Shown here piece by piece: positions 11,649 through 19,876 of a stretch of DNA of 64,000 nt. Location of the stretch: positions 143,672 to 207,671 of the forward strand of contig JBGQGB010000001.1 in assembly GCA_041497195.1 (NCBI GenBank). Direction: 5' to 3'. The DNA is from Candidatus Doudnabacteria bacterium (GTDB lineage Bacteria > Patescibacteriota > Doudnabacteria > UBA920 > 2-01-FULL-46-14). Position 1 is the first letter of the stretch. Each line of letters opens with the position of its first letter. The notes below the pieces were generated by a model. It made no database searches. It was not told the DNA's origin and saw only the letters and a list, made by a program, of their open reading frames with translations. The position numbers were made by a program, and so were the translations under genes.

Positions 11649-14600
11649 CTACGTACCAACCACAAAATTAATAATCTTGCCTGGGACATAGATTACCTTG
11701 CGTACCGTCTTGCCGTCAAGGTATTTGGCCACATTCTCTTCTTTCAAAGCTTGCAGCTTTGCAGCATCTTCCCCCGCATTCACTGGAAGCTCTATCGTAG
11801 CGCGATGCTTGCCGTTGACCTGGACTGCAACAGATACCTTTTCTTCTTTGATGAGCTCCGGGTCATACTTTGGCCATTGTTCGAGTTGAATGGATTTTTT
11901 ATGGCCAAGTTCAGCCCAAAGCTCTTCAGTCAGGTGAGGTGCAAAAGGAAAAAGCAGTTTTAAAAAAATTTTCCAATCATTCTTACTTATGTCGTGGTAC
12001 TGATAATATTCCATAAAAGCAGCAACAGCAGTATTAAACTTAAACGCCTGAATATCCATTGTAATCTTCTTTATGAGCTTATGAATTTTAGGAGAATCGG
12101 GATGGCTGTTCTCCTGTGTATAAAAATTAGATACTCGACTCAAAAATCTGAATACACCTTTTATCCCATCAATATTCCACGGCTTTGCGTCCTCCAGAGG
12201 CCCCATAAACATTTCATACATCCGCATTGAGTCCGCGCCAAATTCCTCAACAATATCGTCAGGATTGATGACATTACCGCGCGATTTGCTCATCTTCTGC
12301 CCGTCAGGACCTAGAACCAGCCCTTGATTTCGCAGTTTCAAAAATGGCTCGTCAAAGTTGAGATATCCCAAATCGCGCAAAACTTTGCAGAAAAACCGGG
12401 CATACATCAGATGCAGAACCGCGTGCTCTGCCCCGCCAACATACACATCCACCGGACACCATTTGGCGATTTCTTTGGCTGACGCAAACTCTTTTGCGTT
12501 GTTCGGATCAGTGTAGCGCAGCCAATACCAGGACGAATCAACAAAAGTGTCCATGGTATCAGTCTCCCGACGAGCTGCCTTGCCGCAATTTGGACACTTC
12601 ACCTTATTGAAAGATTTTGATCGTGCTAGTGGTGACTCTCCAGTCGGCTGAAAATCCACGTCTGTTGGAAGTGTGACAGGGAGGTCTTTTTCCGGCACTG
12701 CCTGCATGCCGCAATCGTGGCAATAAATGATGGGGATGGGAGCTCCCCAATACCGCTGCCGGCTGATCAACCAATCGCGAAGTTTGAATTGAACGGCTCT
12801 ACTACCGATTTCATTTTTTTCTAACCATTCAATAACTTTATTCTTCGCCTCACGGACTGTTAGGCCATTCAAAAAATCAGAATTTATTACCTTAGCCTCC
12901 CAGTCATCATGAACAAATGGGGTATGCTCTATATATTTAAAACCCCCGGCCTTTATCTCTTTAAAGACTTTTTTCTTTGCTTCCTCGGTATTAAATTCAA
13001 ATGCATGGAACCACCTATTAAAATAGCGTGTGGCACTATACCGCGGGTAATCCTCTATGCTAACCTTTTCCTTAGTAATTATTTCTTGCAATTTGATCAT
13101 CTTCGCCTGCTGCTCTGTGCTCCCAATAAGCTCAATACTAATTCCATCATTTACTTTTCTAATATTTATTCCTTGCTGGGTAGCAAACTCCCAATCTCTA
13201 AAATCATGTGCAGGCACGGCCATGATGGCGCCAGTGCCATAATTCATCAAAACATAATCAGCTATCCAGACTGGGATTTTTTCTTTGGTTGCTGGATTGA
13301 TCGCCCACACCCCTTTGAGCTCGACTCCGATTTTGTCTTTTTCCAGAGCTGTTCTTTGGAGTTCTGTTTTACTCTTTGCCTGCTCGATATATTTTTCGAC
13401 CTCTTGAAAATTGGAAATTGAAAATTGCAAATTCTTCACCTGCGGGTTCTCTGGAGCCAAAACCATATAGGTTGCTCCAAATATTGTATCGGGTCGAGTG
13501 GTAAAAACTTTGATGGAATTTTTGACCGCATTCAAAACTTCCAGCTCCTCTTTCCCCTTCACATGAGGCTTCGAGGCTCTGAATTTTACCAAACTGCCTC
13601 CTAGTTTTTCTTTCAAGGCCAAAGAAGCTGATTCTGGCACGATCTGATCGCTTTCATCCTGCAAAATGACGATTTGCTTCGCGTTCTTCTTTATGGCTTC
13701 AAAATCAAAATTCCAGTTCAGCTCCTTTTCAAACGACCGGGCCTTGTCCAAAAATTTTGGGGTTAGAAAACTCCCAACCAAGACTAGCTTGGAAATAGGC
13801 TGTTTCAATTTTTCCAGCATTTTGAGAGCCATCACGCCACCCAGACTGTGCCCGATCAAAACCGAACCTTCATCCAGGCGGGATTTCTGCAAAAGATCGG
13901 CGATTATTTCATTTTCCGGATATTTTTCCGTTCTTTTGTATACTATTGTTTGCGCTCTGGCTCCAGTGGATTGTAAACTTTTGGTTAACCAGGGATAAAA
14001 ATTATCTTGTTCGCTACTAGTCCAGCCCGGCAGGACAATATAGTTGGATTTTATGGCAAGCGGAAACTCAATCTCCGCTCCTTCGCTTCTTCCGATCCAA
14101 TTCCGTTGCATGGTCTTAATCGGCTCCGGCCAGTCTATCTTCTCTAAGCCGTCCAGCAACTCATCCGCATAGTCAGTAATTTTATAAAACCACTGCGATA
14201 GAAGCTTCTGCACAACCTGCGTGCCGCAACGCTCGCAGCGACCAGCGATGACTTGCTCATTCGCCAAAACTGTCTGGTCTTTGGGGCACCAGTTCACATA
14301 AGCTTCTTTGCGATACGCCAGACCCTTCTCGTAAAATTTCAGGAACAGCCACTGCGTCCATTTATAATATTCCGGATCCGAAGTATTTACTTCCCGGTCC
14401 CAGTCGTAGGACAGCCCCAGGGACTGAATCTGCTGTCTGAATCTTTTGATATTGGCCGCGGTTGATTTGGCCGGGTGAATTTTTTCTTTGATCGCATAAT
14501 TCTCGGCCGGCAACCCAAAAGCATCCCAACCCATCGGGTGCAGGACGTCATAGCCGTTCATGCGCAGATACCGTGAATAGATGTCAGTCGCGGTATAACC

Positions 14601-14762
14601 TTCGGGATGGCCGACGTGCAGCCCCGCGCCCGAGGGATAAGGAAACATATCCAGGATATATTTCTTTTTCTTCCCCGGATTTTTCGGCGTGGCGTAGAGC
14701 TTCTGCTCTGCCCATTTCTTCTGCCACTTTTTTTCAATTTTGCTGTGATTGTACTTGGTCAT
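11649..14762 (-). CDS. leuS: leucyl-tRNA synthetase with an extra inserted serine-hydrolase-like domain
   Basis: 1037 aa. It carries HMGH-like (PYPSGAGLHVGHPEGY) and KMSKS (QKMSKSRGNV) motifs, a CERCGTQV zinc region and TTRPDTIFGATY at the start of the editing domain. A roughly 170-aa insertion lies between the Zn-1 region and TTRPDT (see the separate feature). Confidence 0.95.
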   Translation of the reverse strand: MTKYNHSKIEKKWQKKWAEQKLYATPKNPGKKKKYILDMFPYPSGAGLHVGHPEGYTATDIYSRYLRMNGYDVLHPMGWDAFGLPAENYAIKEKIHPAKSTAANIKRFRQQIQSLGLSYDWDREVNTSDPEYYKWTQWLFLKFYEKGLAYRKEAYVNWCPKDQTVLANEQVIAGRCERCGTQVVQKLLSQWFYKITDYADELLDGLEKIDWPEPIKTMQRNWIGRSEGAEIEFPLAIKSNYIVLPGWTSSEQDNFYPWLTKSLQSTGARAQTIVYKRTEKYPENEIIADLLQKSRLDEGSVLIGHSLGGVMALKMLEKLKQPISKLVLVGSFLTPKFLDKARSFEKELNWNFDFEAIKKNAKQIVILQDESDQIVPESASLALKEKLGGSLVKFRASKPHVKGKEELEVLNAVKNSIKVFTTRPDTIFGATYMVLAPENPQVKNLQFSISNFQEVEKYIEQAKSKTELQRTALEKDKIGVELKGVWAINPATKEKIPVWIADYVLMNYGTGAIMAVPAHDFRDWEFATQQGINIRKVNDGISIELIGSTEQQAKMIKLQEIITKEKVSIEDYPRYSATRYFNRWFHAFEFNTEEAKKKVFKEIKAGGFKYIEHTPFVHDDWEAKVINSDFLNGLTVREAKNKVIEWLEKNEIGSRAVQFKLRDWLISRQRYWGAPIPIIYCHDCGMQAVPEKDLPVTLPTDVDFQPTGESPLARSKSFNKVKCPNCGKAARRETDTMDTFVDSSWYWLRYTDPNNAKEFASAKEIAKWCPVDVYVGGAEHAVLHLMYARFFCKVLRDLGYLNFDEPFLKLRNQGLVLGPDGQKMSKSRGNVINPDDIVEEFGADSMRMYEMFMGPLEDAKPWNIDGIKGVFRFLSRVSNFYTQENSHPDSPKIHKLIKKITMDIQAFKFNTAVAAFMEYYQYHDISKNDWKIFLKLLFPFAPHLTEELWAELGHKKSIQLEQWPKYDPELIKEEKVSVAVQVNGKHRATIELPVNAGEDAAKLQALKEENVAKYLDGKTVRKVIYVPGKIINFVVGT
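13535..14045 (-). other. RBBP9/YdeN-like (PF06821-type) alpha/beta serine-hydrolase domain inserted in-frame within leuS
   Basis: LeuS residues about 240-410 read YIVLPGWTSSEQDNFYPWLTKSLQ...VLIGHSLGGVMALKML...VILQDESDQIVP...RASKPH. They contain a GxSxG nucleophile elbow (GHSLGG) and candidate Asp and His triad residues. In E. coli LeuS only about 20 residues separate the equivalent flanks (NWIGRSEG ... TTRPDT). Confidence 0.6.
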
Positions 14763-17108: not shown

Positions 17109-18554
17109 TTATTTCTCCAAACGCGGAAACAGCGGCTCGGCTTTCGCCACTCTTTCCGCGGACAAACCGCTCCGGATCGCTTCCGCAGTTTCGGGCATGT
17201 AGGGCGCTAATTTTTTGGCAACCTCATAAAGCAGCGCCACTAGATTGGAAATGACTTCCTCAAAAAGTTTGGGATTTTTTTTCGCGCTCTCCCACGGCTT
17301 CGTCTCGTCTATGTATTTATTGGCCCAGGCCACCTCTTCCCAAATCCGCGCCAGTGCTTCGTGGAAGCGAAACTCCTGCAACATTTCATCGACTTCATCA
17401 AACGATCGCGGACTATGGACCATGTCAGGCAAATGCCCGTCCAAATTATTCGCAATCAAGGTGGTCAACCGGCTGAACAAATTCCCGAGCCCGTTGGCCA
17501 GATCCCCTTCGTAACGAGCTGCGAGTTTCTCCAGAGAAAAATCGCCATCTTGCCCAAACGGGATCTCGCGCAACAGAAAATATCGAACAGTATCGGCCCC
17601 GTATTTTGCCACCAAATCATTGGGATCAATGACATTGCCCAGAGATTTGCTGATTTTCTGACCGTTGATGGTGAAAAAACCGTGCGCAAAGACTTTTTTC
17701 GGCCAGGGTATGCCGGCAGCTTCCAAAAGCGCAGGCCAAATGATGCAATGAAAACGGGTAATGTCTTTTCCGACAATATGAACGTCGGCGGGCCAAAACT
17801 GCTTGTATTTTTCACCCTCTGGAAAGCCGAGAACGGAAATATAGTTGAACAGCGCGTCCACCCAGACATAAACAGTCTGCGACTGGTCCCACGGGACCTT
17901 AATACCCCACTTTACGTTCGGCCGGCTGATCGCCACGTCTTCCAACCCTTGTTCAATAAAAGCGATGATTTCGTTGCGACGCGACTCCGGTTCTATGATA
18001 AATTCACCAACCCTGATCCGCTCTTCCAAAATTTGCCCGTAGTCCGAAAGCTTGAAAAACCAATTTTTTTCTTTGAGCAACTCGGGTTTGGTTTTGTGGT
18101 CAGGACAGAGGCCATTCGCGTCCAAATCCCCCTCTCTGAGGAAGGCTTCGTGTCCCACGCAATACAATCCCTGATATTCGCCCTCGTAGACTTTTCCGGA
18201 CTTTTTCAAAAGTTCGAGGAACTGTATCACCGCCCGCTCGTGCCGCTTCTCAGTCGTGCGGATGAAATCGTCCGGCGCTATGCCTAGGCTATTCCAGGCG
18301 AAAGAAAATTTGGCTGACATTTCATGAGTGAACTCCTCCGGGGTTTTGCCGGCGGCTTTTGCCGCTCGCTCGATTTTCGAGCCGTGCTCGTCAGTGCCAG
18401 TCAAAAAGAAAGTCGGCGTCCCGGAAAAACGATAAAACCGCGCCAACACGTCAGCGGCAATGGTCGTGTAAGCCGTGCCAATATGCGGCTTGTCGTTGAC
18501 ATAGTATATAGGCGTGGTGATGTAGAATTTTTCTGGTTTGGTGATTTCAGGCAT
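17109..18554 (-). CDS. metG: methionyl-tRNA synthetase
   Basis: It carries YITTPIYYVNDKPHIGTAYTTIAADV (HIGH region) and KISKSLGNVIDP (KMSKS). Confidence 0.95.
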   Translation of the reverse strand: MPEITKPEKFYITTPIYYVNDKPHIGTAYTTIAADVLARFYRFSGTPTFFLTGTDEHGSKIERAAKAAGKTPEEFTHEMSAKFSFAWNSLGIAPDDFIRTTEKRHERAVIQFLELLKKSGKVYEGEYQGLYCVGHEAFLREGDLDANGLCPDHKTKPELLKEKNWFFKLSDYGQILEERIRVGEFIIEPESRRNEIIAFIEQGLEDVAISRPNVKWGIKVPWDQSQTVYVWVDALFNYISVLGFPEGEKYKQFWPADVHIVGKDITRFHCIIWPALLEAAGIPWPKKVFAHGFFTINGQKISKSLGNVIDPNDLVAKYGADTVRYFLLREIPFGQDGDFSLEKLAARYEGDLANGLGNLFSRLTTLIANNLDGHLPDMVHSPRSFDEVDEMLQEFRFHEALARIWEEVAWANKYIDETKPWESAKKNPKLFEEVISNLVALLYEVAKKLAPYMPETAEAIRSGLSAERVAKAEPLFPRLEK

Positions 18555-18556
18555 AG

Positions 18557-18667
18557 CTAATCCGACTCCTGCCCTCCGGAGCTCCGCCCCAGCGAAACGA
18601 AGGATGGGTCGTTGACATAATAGATGGGTGTGGTGATATAAAACTTTTTTGGTAATTCTTCTGACAT
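18557..18667 (-). pseudogene. 36-codon ORF that is a tandem duplicate of the metG 5' end; a gene remnant or possibly a leader peptide
   Basis: The minus-strand ORF encodes MSEELPKKFYITTPIYYVNDPSFVSLGRSSGGQESD, ending with TAG. Its first 20 aa and the 5'-UTR (gaatcgaattagcaATG versus gtcggattagctATG) are about 75-80% nucleotide-identical to the metG start region. The TAG lies 2 nt before the metG ATG. Confidence 0.5.
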
Positions 18668-18841
18668 TGCTAATTCGATTCTCGCCTCGCCCGGACCCGA
18701 GACACGGGGCTGGGGAGGGCTTTATTTATATAGATAAGGTCATCGCAATGAAAAATTTGTGAAACATTCATCCATAAAACAAAAAGGTCCTGACAGACCC
18801 CTTTATTATGCCAAAATTGGCAGTATTTCGCAATTTTTGAT

Positions 18842-19876
18842 TTATGCCGTTTGGTGATCCCGACTTTCCAAAAAGTCCGTCAAAAAAACTTGAAACGACG
18901 AGACGATCGGAACCGCCAAAAACATTCCCAAAATTCCCGCTAGTTTGAAGCCGACCAAAACCGCCACCATAATGACCACGGGATTGGCTCCGACAGTGCG
19001 CCCCATAATCTTTGGCACCAGAATGTAATTCTCAATCTGCTGGATGAGGATGTACATTGCGATTGTAAACAAGGCCAGAGGGGGCGACTGCACAAAAGCC
19101 AAAAATACGCCCGGCACAGCCGAGAGGATTGGCCCCAAATAAGGCACAATCTCGAGGAGTCCGGCCAACAGGGCAAGTGCCAGCGCAAATTTGACATGCA
19201 AGATCATCAGCCCAATGTAGGCTAGGATGAACAGGCAAGCCGAGAGAATCAGTTGTCCCAAAAGCCAACGACCGATTTTATTCTGAATCCGATCCGTCAG
19301 CGCCGCTGCATAAGCTTGGTGCTTGAAAGGGACCAAGGATTTGATAAAATTTTTCAGTCCGTTTTCTGAGGAGATGAGATAAAACGAGATGGCCAACACA
19401 GAAATGACTTGGATAAAACCGCTGAATACGCCGAGAGTCGTTTGGAAAAAATTACTGGTGAATTTGCTGAAACTAGCACCCAGAGAAGAAAACCCGTTGG
19501 TGATCCCCAGCTGATCCAAGACTTTCGCCACTGTCGCGTGCTGGGAGAGTTCGCTGCGAAAAGTCTCAAACCGGCCGGCGAGCTGATTGAATTGCCCGAC
19601 CATCGGTGGGATCAAAAAATAAAAAACCAAACCGAAAAAACTGACAAACACCAGATAAACTAAAATTACCGACAAGCCGCGCGGAAATTTGGCTTTGCGG
19701 TACATCCAGTCGACCAAAGGATCCATGGCAGAAGCTAAAACAATCGAAACAACCAAAATTAAAATGATGTCCTTCACCGTATACAGGGCGAAAAGCAACA
19801 AAGCAAAAACTACGATCTTGACTAGCGAGGCCGTAGAAATGTCGTATGAAACTTTTTGGACTTTTTCTTCAGTCAT
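18842..19876 (-). CDS. AI-2E family transporter (UPF0118/PerM-like permease)
   Basis: 344 aa with 7-8 TM segments. The N-terminal organisation is characteristic (IVVFALLLFALYTVKDIILILVVSIVLASAMDPLVDWM), and a conserved C-terminal region reads LVPYLGPILSAVP. Confidence 0.75.
   Translation of the reverse strand: MTEEKVQKVSYDISTASLVKIVVFALLLFALYTVKDIILILVVSIVLASAMDPLVDWMYRKAKFPRGLSVILVYLVFVSFFGLVFYFLIPPMVGQFNQLAGRFETFRSELSQHATVAKVLDQLGITNGFSSLGASFSKFTSNFFQTTLGVFSGFIQVISVLAISFYLISSENGLKNFIKSLVPFKHQAYAAALTDRIQNKIGRWLLGQLILSACLFILAYIGLMILHVKFALALALLAGLLEIVPYLGPILSAVPGVFLAFVQSPPLALFTIAMYILIQQIENYILVPKIMGRTVGANPVVIMVAVLVGFKLAGILGMFLAVPIVSSFQVFLTDFLESRDHQTA

Follow-up and report, generated by a model that had tools for sequence, protein, structure and literature searches.

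Rickettsia palindromic elements (RPEs) occur in multiple copies, are inserted in frame and are translated within the protein. They receive mention in PMC1779305. The insertion sequences IS1634 and IS1549 are flanked by direct repeats of 8-514 bp, variable in length and made by an unknown mechanism (PMC2266710). Gene 60 of phage T4 carries a mobile coding gap of 50 nt, which ribosomes cross by translational bypassing (bioRxiv 10.1101/2022.08.31.505936, PMC7026636). In a kink-turn (K-turn), a Watson-Crick C helix is followed by a 3-nt bulge and by G.A/A.G pairs 3' of the bulge, and a GA on the opposite strand abuts the helix (PMC5061560). Here, we describe a small structured insert at the start of metG, the gene for methionyl-tRNA synthetase (MetRS), in a stretch of 64,000 nt from a Candidatus Doudnabacteria contig (JBGQGB010000001.1, positions 143,672 to 207,671; the window). 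No description of such an arrangement was found in the literature searched, and the element matched no described element. Judging from sequence comparison, the feature in the window is one member of a family of inserts that split gene starts with strict geometry. We give a probability of about one half to the view that it is a site-selective small structured insert that re-creates the gene start, while the old start becomes an upstream open reading frame (ORF) that would hand ribosomes to metG.

In the window, metG encodes a MetRS of 481 amino acids (Pfam tRNA-synt_1g), and all parts of the array lie on the minus strand (Table 1). The gene is preceded by an ORF of 36 amino acids (MSEELPKKFYITTPIYYVNDPSFVSLGRSSGGQESD), the TAG stop codon of which lies 2 nt ahead of the metG ATG. 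Both starts belong to a direct repeat with a period of 116 nt and, in the repeat search, a 46-nt core of 83% identity. The units 18608-18723 and 18492-18607 agree at 82 of 104 positions (79%), and another alignment gives 81% column identity; Tandem Repeats Finder, run on the region, left the 116-nt repeat uncalled. Each unit comprises the metG start, its first 20 codons and ~55 nt 5' of the ATG. An earlier note on this DNA had claimed that the metG 5' end is duplicated upstream together with its ribosome binding site (RBS) region, and that the upstream copy keeps its ATG and its frame up to a stop beside the metG ATG; these claims hold. The small CCCG-ugucu-CGGG hairpin that it placed further upstream is there as well, and belongs to the older of two insert copies (18680-18719). 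The region is 100% identical in five independent assemblies (two metagenome-assembled genomes (MAGs) at NCBI, one JGI metagenome and two Logan runs), all of which encode the same MetRS. Therefore, an assembly artefact is excluded.

The same architecture is seen in 12 Patescibacteria metG loci, the window and 11 others, and in two tatD loci. Two further cases emerged when 80 species-representative metG loci were scanned for a second FYITTPIYY motif: L006, which is the closest relative of the window (83% MetRS identity), and L081, a Komeilibacteria MAG (46% identity). The upstream copies of both occupy the ancestral start, the sequence breaks between ..YYVND and P, and a GC-rich spacer leads to a new ATG with the same N-terminal codons. 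A metagenome scan with the fully degenerate TTPIYYVNDP pattern returned 14 matches. Ten of them show the architecture, on nine distinct contigs as L092 and L098 are the same sequence; the remaining matches are three ordinary MetRS genes with NDPPHIG and one ambiguous case. The spacer motif GGGGCRRGA, searched alone across the loci, revealed the tatD cases in L058 (4946-5060) and L064 (4936-5050). There, ATG-Leu-Ile-GA runs into CCCC..GGGG-CGA-GA, ~62 nt of AT-rich filler follow, and the gene starts again with ATG-Leu-Ile-GAY-THCH, so that the repeat amounts to four codons (MLID).

Element-free relatives of the window are L007-L011, L100, L101, L104 and L107, at 72-80% MetRS identity. Elsewhere, close relatives without the element are L082 for L081, L076 for L097, and L061, which is the sister of L064. 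These observations bear on two suggestions of the earlier note. A leader conserved in the lineage is contradicted, on a refuting condition that the note itself had named, by the nearest relatives, which, bar L006, lack the duplication, and a purely local fossil is contradicted by the same break point, homologous GC-rich spacer and same spacing in distant Patescibacteria and in tatD. A stricter hairpin scan over the loci found short hairpins at metG sites only. A loose scan of all loci (GA + 7 bp + GGCNNGA) gave 218 matches versus 100-130 in shuffles and is uninformative. When viral contigs were scanned with GACCCCG..CGGGGCGAGA, there were at least 120 matches, all of them due to chance in high-GC DNA or to coding sequence, and none had a repeat where one would be expected.

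Two further observations concern individual loci. On the minus strand of L030, at ~2880-2910, GTAAACGACCACGCTCCACAGGGGGCGAGACG-ATG stands ahead of the gene divergent from metG, and may be a remnant of the hairpin insert with a YVND-like flank, in the opposite orientation. The protein P0001, a MetRS of 494 amino acids from the L006 species, has a gene call that begins inside the insert (MSTTPSSDGARIGSFRFVIM-LDKFY..); this N-terminus is an annotation artefact caused by the element. Among 64 close MetRS homologues with inspected N-termini, P0001 alone starts inside the insert.

According to the order of its parts, the window holds the traces of two insertion rounds, the distal copy of which has decayed. 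We label the older round A0 (copy of the metG start) and E0 (insert), and the younger round A1 (the upstream ORF) and E1 (insert). A0 (18720-18775) has marginal similarity to the metG 5' end (shuffle p = 0.03-0.6); judged by its place, that of the ancestral start, it is probably a third copy that has decayed. The 12-mer GGCGAGGCGAGA of E0 is common to L081 alone among 85 loci, and E0 and the single spacer of L006 have GGCGAGAATCG in common. A second two-round array is present in L088 (reverse strand, ~410-640 nt upstream of the end of the contig-oriented metG start). It consists of a decayed copy at the native start (MAKRFYPAPVPPSA, then a stop), a hairpin (GA-TCCTGTAC..GTACAGGG-CTAGA), an intact copy with MSKKFY.., a second hairpin and metG itself with MKKFY... 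The decayed copy of L088 still starts MAKRFY, as does metG of its relatives, and is a clearer parallel to A0 of the window. The N-terminal sequences of the two copies are often not quite the same within a locus, with MSEELPK versus MPEITKPE in the window and MVENLK versus MLD in L006.

The inserts have a general form in common, in which ...N-G-A is followed by C-C-C-(C/A), a variable stem-loop, (C/U)-G-G-G-G, C-N-N and G-A, then by ~12 conserved-ish nt, an AT-rich filler and the ATG. Each insert directly follows the GA of an Asp codon (metG ..YYVND, tatD MLID) and is placed within the first 4-21 codons. Conservation is strongest at the foot of the hairpin, where the 5' GA is kept in 14/14 elements apart from the decayed E0, the bulge C in 14/14 and the 3' GA in 13/14 (GG in L095). 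The stem-loop and the 5-nt CNN-GA bulge motif together measure from 23 nt, with an 18-nt hairpin (L006 and L097), to 135 nt (L092), and the longer hairpin forms have an apical TCGCT-like motif in common. Upper stems vary in length and sequence and differ by compensatory changes. When 13 elements were aligned and trimmed, paired cells made up 80% versus 72.6% in shuffles (0/500), all slid registers are worse, and the covariation score is 0.187 versus 0.117 in shuffles (9/500). E1 folds as a hairpin, yet has z = -0.55 by itself, so that the support for the fold is comparative. The spacer is read in different frames from locus to locus and is therefore not coding. A search of Rfam 15 (E<=10 for the window region, E<=5 for nine loci) gave no family at the element, T-box included.

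The foot of the hairpin, GA-CCCC..GGGG-CNN-GA, fits the sequence consensus and the strand polarity of a K-turn in 13/14 elements, L095 with its GG being the other. This match is a sequence signature, and the K-turn itself is a prediction. The non-canonical helix, which would lie beside the G.A pairs, has weak complementarity; a check by eye found 7/12 pairs at one position, which is at chance level.

The spacing of the array is strict. The second GA ends 71-74 nt beyond the end of GGGG-CNN-GA in 14/14 measurable elements. This holds despite a repeated coding part that ranges from 11 nt (tatD) to 62 nt (window) and a hairpin and bulge motif of 23-135 nt. The filler from the motif to the new ATG takes 12 to 63 nt, and the new start codon thus has a variable position within the fixed block. 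Two readings of the 71-74 nt remain: they are either a target duplication of fixed length, the non-coding part of which has decayed, or a functional spacing. In 8 of 12 loci, the upstream ORF ends at -4 to +13 nt relative to the true start codon, and in the other four the distance is 36-135 nt. In L088, the upstream ORF and the gene overlap by ATGA. The earlier proposal of coupling by termination and reinitiation is compatible with this geometry and with the position of the window's ORF downstream of the predicted promoter. Our data suggest that the upstream ORF is probably translated and coupled to metG. A frameshift fusion of the two ORFs was rejected, the ATG-to-ATG offsets being 0, 1 and 2 modulo 3.

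The upstream copy appears to be held at the amino-acid level. Restricting the count to codons outside every search pattern, we found 19 synonymous and 0 nonsynonymous differences between the upstream and downstream copies (P ~6e-9 if neutral, 6e-6 without the window). In the window alone, KFYITTPIYYVN has 7 synonymous differences and no nonsynonymous one, and its divergence (~20%) is similar to that of the non-coding spacer. By these counts, constraint would act on the gene-adjacent copy, while distal copies decay. Such synonymous-only divergence would mean that the short peptide, or its translation, matters.

The sole promoter-like site on the minus strand within 18300-19100 is at 18833-18805, upstream of the whole array. 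Since this predicted start lies 5' of the upstream ORF, the ORF should be on the metG mRNA. In relatives, the usual order is the gene for an AI-2E transporter, a promoter (TTG..-17-TATAAT), a short GC hairpin with a T-run, and directly thereafter the metG ATG, with neither an upstream ORF nor a Shine-Dalgarno sequence. The window retains the promoter and the hairpin of its relatives, and ~220 nt then intervene before metG. The AGGAG that the earlier note took for the metG RBS is present, 10 nt before the ATG, and coincides with the conserved GGG-CAG-GA-G motif of the insert. It is poor evidence of an RBS, because Shine-Dalgarno-like motifs precede 10 of the 77 long ORFs of the window (13%) versus a background of 11% and are hence not enriched. 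Translation initiation in this genome seems to be largely independent of Shine-Dalgarno sequences.

Some other properties of the metG leaders deserve mention in their own right. In Doudnabacteria (the window, L006, L007, L011, L020, L022 and L023), a terminator-like GC hairpin with a T-run separates the promoter's -10 box from the start of metG. It is probably the terminator of the upstream AI-2E gene, lying inside the metG 5' untranslated region; our terminator scan did not flag the hairpin and T-run of the window. In L058, L060, L061, L064 and L088, the -10 box (TATAAT/TATACT) is exactly 9 nt before the metG start codon, which suggests leaderless metG mRNAs in this Patescibacteria clade. Long metG leaders in L014, L016 and L022 are dense in direct and inverted TACGAA/TTCGTA repeats ~100 nt upstream (ctacgaactacgaaa..tacgaaaatacgaaaag...ttcgtaattttgtag); these are another repeat element than the hairpin insert, at the same position. 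Finally, L080 has a tandem repeat of ~48 nt (tttcgagcaaagcgagaaacaaagttctgagcaaagcaaaggtttttat) ~230 nt upstream of metG, which flanks a masked run of N directly ahead of the metG start.

We propose the following mechanism. The stem-loop would be a low-copy, site-selective insertion element, the arrival of which brings a long direct duplication that includes the start codon. Insertions in the first ~20 codons of an essential gene would survive only with a duplication that covers the start, and the start is re-created thereby. The element would be gained sporadically and might be lost by recombination between the repeats. The metG mRNA would start at the old promoter upstream of the array. Ribosomes that initiate at the old ATG would then synthesise the N-terminal peptide, open the stem-loop as they go and reach their stop codon 2 nt ahead of the metG AUG, and metG would be translated largely by reinitiation in this Shine-Dalgarno-poor genome. 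The hairpin, with its invariant foot that fits the K-turn consensus, may also serve as a protein-binding operator. Upstream copies sit at the start position of the relatives, which supports this proposal. Like miniature inverted-repeat transposable elements (MITEs), the element has a palindromic body, here a hairpin whose foot is conserved and whose upper stem varies by compensatory changes. On the two sides of the insert, a direct repeat is seen in all cases for the coding part from ATG to GA, but not for the non-coding part outside the second round of the window. Sites are empty in close relatives, and no second site turned up in the window or the related loci searched. A more far-reaching version, which we take to be less likely than not, is that a new class of Patescibacteria element places a K-turn hairpin after a GA near the starts of essential genes and copies the start with a ruler of ~72 nt. 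The gene would thus be divided into a conserved N-terminal micro-ORF and a full-length ORF that starts anew, and the micro-peptide (the first beta-strand of the enzyme) or the bound hairpin would have its own role in the control of the enzyme.

Several points weigh against insertion followed by reinitiation. No transposase, integrase or binding protein was identified, the partner protein not having been searched for. A search of the 64-kb window and of ~685 kb of related loci found no further copy of the motif, whereas ordinary MITEs are multi-copy. Single-sequence folding energies are no better than those of shuffles (z = -0.55 to -1.4). Outside the second round of the window, the filler does not resemble the DNA 5' of the upstream ATG to a significant degree, and a target duplication of fixed length thus needs rapid decay together with gene conversion of the coding part. 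A model in which the copy is a mere scar and translation simply restarts gives no reason for the upstream copy to be constrained at the amino-acid level. Moreover, most examples were found with a peptide-based pattern, and the census is biased to intact upstream copies.

The alternative that survives best is a domesticated cis-regulatory operator, in which an L7Ae/YlxQ-type or other protein binds the K-turn and controls the translation of metG and tatD. The upstream ORF would open the hairpin or be blocked by it, and the 71-74 nt would be a functional spacing. We know of no bacterial mRNA operator of this K-turn form. The invariant foot with its standard K-turn signature and the compensatory changes in the variable upper stem agree with an operator, as does a spacing that is strict even where the filler is unrecognisable. 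So do the constraint on the proximal upstream copy, which the distal one lacks, and the older hairpin of L088, which retains its motif though its upstream copy has decayed. Translational control by L7Ae and a K-turn is known in archaea (PMC5539422). However, the distribution is patchy, with sister species that lack the element, and the helix beside the G.A pairs is no more complementary than chance. The variable place of the start codon within the fixed block means that the spacing is not to the start. Furthermore, a partner protein was neither sought nor found. An operator is compatible with an origin by insertion, and we consider it unlikely, though well short of negligible.

Spread by homologous recombination is also compatible with the insertion reading and is distinctly improbable as an explanation in its own right. 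The element would have a rare origin and be passed on as an allele, the start of the recipient recombining with the upstream copy of the donor, so that the two copies are diverged orthologues. This would explain synonymous-only differences without a function for the peptide, and in some cases the copies may indeed have diverged as orthologues before being joined with a relative's DNA. The patchy distribution and the decay of distal copies are in line with it, and copies in one genome have lineage-specific N-termini in common, often inexactly. Nevertheless, recombination is insufficient because it cannot carry the element between classes at 46% MetRS identity, or from metG to tatD. It also leaves aside that the upstream copy of L006 is intact, though its spacer looks orthologous to the older one of the window, where the copy has decayed, and that the MLID of tatD persists intact in both L058 and L064 although third positions are saturated.

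The earlier note had also suggested that the upstream peptide senses charging. As an amino-acid-sensing leader peptide or attenuator of metG, it could account for an intact, constrained ORF on the predicted transcript with its stop abutting the start. Against this, the initiator is the single Met codon of the 36-residue ORF, and the same is true of all 12 upstream ORFs compared. No terminator-like hairpin with a T-run stands between the ORF and metG, where the hairpin is followed by CNNGA rather than a U-run, and no terminator/antiterminator pair is formed. Neither a T-box nor another Rfam family matches, the closest relatives but one lack the element, and the same module stands on tatD with a repeat of four codons. 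Sensing of this kind is very unlikely.

We find a recoding event very doubtful too. A ribosome hop or RNA processing would link the first GA directly to the base that follows the second GA; the upstream copy would be the real N-terminus of MetRS, and the fixed distance would be the gap length. Codons do match at both sites (GAC / GAY), and the stable hairpin begins inside the take-off codon, at its third base, with a constant distance from hairpin to second GA. The amino-acid constraint on the upstream copy would be expected, and the mobile 50-nt bypass insert of T4 gene 60 is a precedent (bioRxiv 10.1101/2022.08.31.505936). However, a bypassed gap would have no need of an ATG, a frame or an amino-acid sequence of its own, yet the downstream copy retains all three in every case. 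No stop follows the take-off codon, the next codon being CCC/CCA (Pro). The nascent peptide of tatD would have four residues, and in L064 the identity around the junction is lost.

Least likely is a one-off local tandem duplication that decays neutrally, or an artefact of assembly: the second round of the window is a plain tandem repeat of the 116-nt unit and the oldest copy has decayed, but the same junction, motif and spacing return in at least 13 further loci, which refutes this as a complete explanation, the 7 synonymous versus 0 nonsynonymous differences at ~20% divergence oppose neutral decay, and the agreement of five assemblies opposes an artefact. Some known element types were set aside as well. 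A diversity-generating retroelement was rejected, since the copies do not differ specifically at adenines. Likewise rejected were self-cleaving ribozymes (HDV-like and others), CRISPR repeats, integron attC sites and a T7-type promoter, because the 18-nt hairpin forms are too short for the cores or the conserved letters differ.

Table 1. Parts of the array at the 5' end of metG in the window, from the promoter-like site to the gene
Feature	Position	Strand	Remarks
Promoter-like site (TTGCGA, 17 nt, CATAAT)	18805..18833	-	Position conserved with L006 and other Doudnabacteria (TTGCGA..TATAAT layout)
Short GC hairpin and T-run, between the -10 box and the ancestral metG start	18776..18804	-	Same layout of hairpin, T-run and ATG in L007, L011, L020, L022, L023 and others
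A0, probable decayed oldest copy of the metG start (ATGGATGAATG...AAATAAAG)	18720..18775	-	Position matches the upstream copy of L006
E0, older insert copy (CCCTCCCCAG-CCCCGTGTCTCGGG-..GGCGAGG-CGA-GA)	18680..18719	-	5' GA lost, now AG
Arm of E0 (ATCGAATTAGCA)	18668..18679	-	Runs into the upstream-ORF ATG; matches the arm before metG, p = 0.002
A1, upstream ORF of 36 amino acids	18557..18667	-	Repeated part ATG..GA at 18609-18667, then reads into E1; TAG at 18557-18559
E1, younger insert copy (CCCATCC..hairpin..GGAGGG-CAG-GA)	18567..18608	-	K-turn-type signature with the GA of codon Asp20
Arm of E1 (GTCGGATTAGCT)	18555..18566	-	Holds the upstream-ORF stop and abuts the metG ATG
metG	17109..18554	-	First 62 nt (18493-18554) are the repeated segment, ending at the GA of Asp21, just before KPHIG (HIGH motif)

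Elsewhere in the window, at 11649-14762 on the minus strand and downstream of inositol-phosphatase genes, a LeuRS-like product of 1037 amino acids has weak Ser_hydrolase/Abhydrolase Pfam matches inside the synthetase, and may contain an inserted domain.

If insertion followed by reinitiation is true, bacteria with small genomes can live with, and may even exploit, an insert that disrupts an essential gene in its first 20 codons and re-creates the start at once. It would then represent a new survival route for mobile DNA in genomes with almost no intergenic space, and a new evolutionary source of upstream ORFs, the peptides of which copy the N-terminus of the protein that follows. The fixed geometry of 71-74 nt and the K-turn-type foot are testable handles, on a ruler and on a possible protein partner respectively. 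For annotation, the metG and tatD starts of Patescibacteria MAGs call for caution, as they may follow intact pseudo-starts, and gene callers extend or misplace N-termini (e.g. P0001).

Compared with described systems, the element combines familiar features in an unfamiliar way. Like RPEs, it is a small hairpin-forming element without an ORF that is tolerated inside essential genes of small-genome bacteria. Unlike RPEs, it is single-copy per locus, interrupts the ORF and comes with a repeated start and repeated N-terminal codons, whereas RPEs neither re-create a start codon nor repeat an N-terminus. Like IS1634 and IS1549, it would be flanked by unusually long target duplications; those insertion sequences, however, measure 1.5-2 kb and carry a transposase, whereas the insert measures 23-135 nt, has no ORF and comes with a fixed block of 71-74 nt. 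In T4 gene 60, too, a short insert interrupts an essential gene, a hairpin marks the interruption and the flanking codons match. Take-off in gene 60 is immediately followed by a stop, and that gene has a single start and does not repeat its N-terminus, whereas here the downstream copy has its own conserved start, and restart is therefore simpler than hopping. As in the coupling of upstream ORFs by termination and reinitiation, as generally known, the stop lies a few nt from the main start (2 nt in the window, ATGA overlap in L088). It differs from ordinary coupling in that the ORF copies the N-terminus of its own gene, a conserved structured insert stands between, and the occurrence is sporadic. 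An attenuation leader of the trp or pheST type would likewise have a short ORF on the same transcript, as is predicted here, but the cognate codon run, the terminator/antiterminator and the conservation in relatives are missing. The binding sites of the L7Ae family (PMC5061560, PMC5539422) have the helix, the 3-nt bulge, the G.A/A.G on its 3' side and the opposite GA in common with the foot of the insert, where they are present as a signature only. Taken by sequence, the element departs in at least one defining feature from each of RPEs, IS1634/IS1549, the T4 gene 60 insert and attenuation leaders, and what it does match is the signature of the K-turn.

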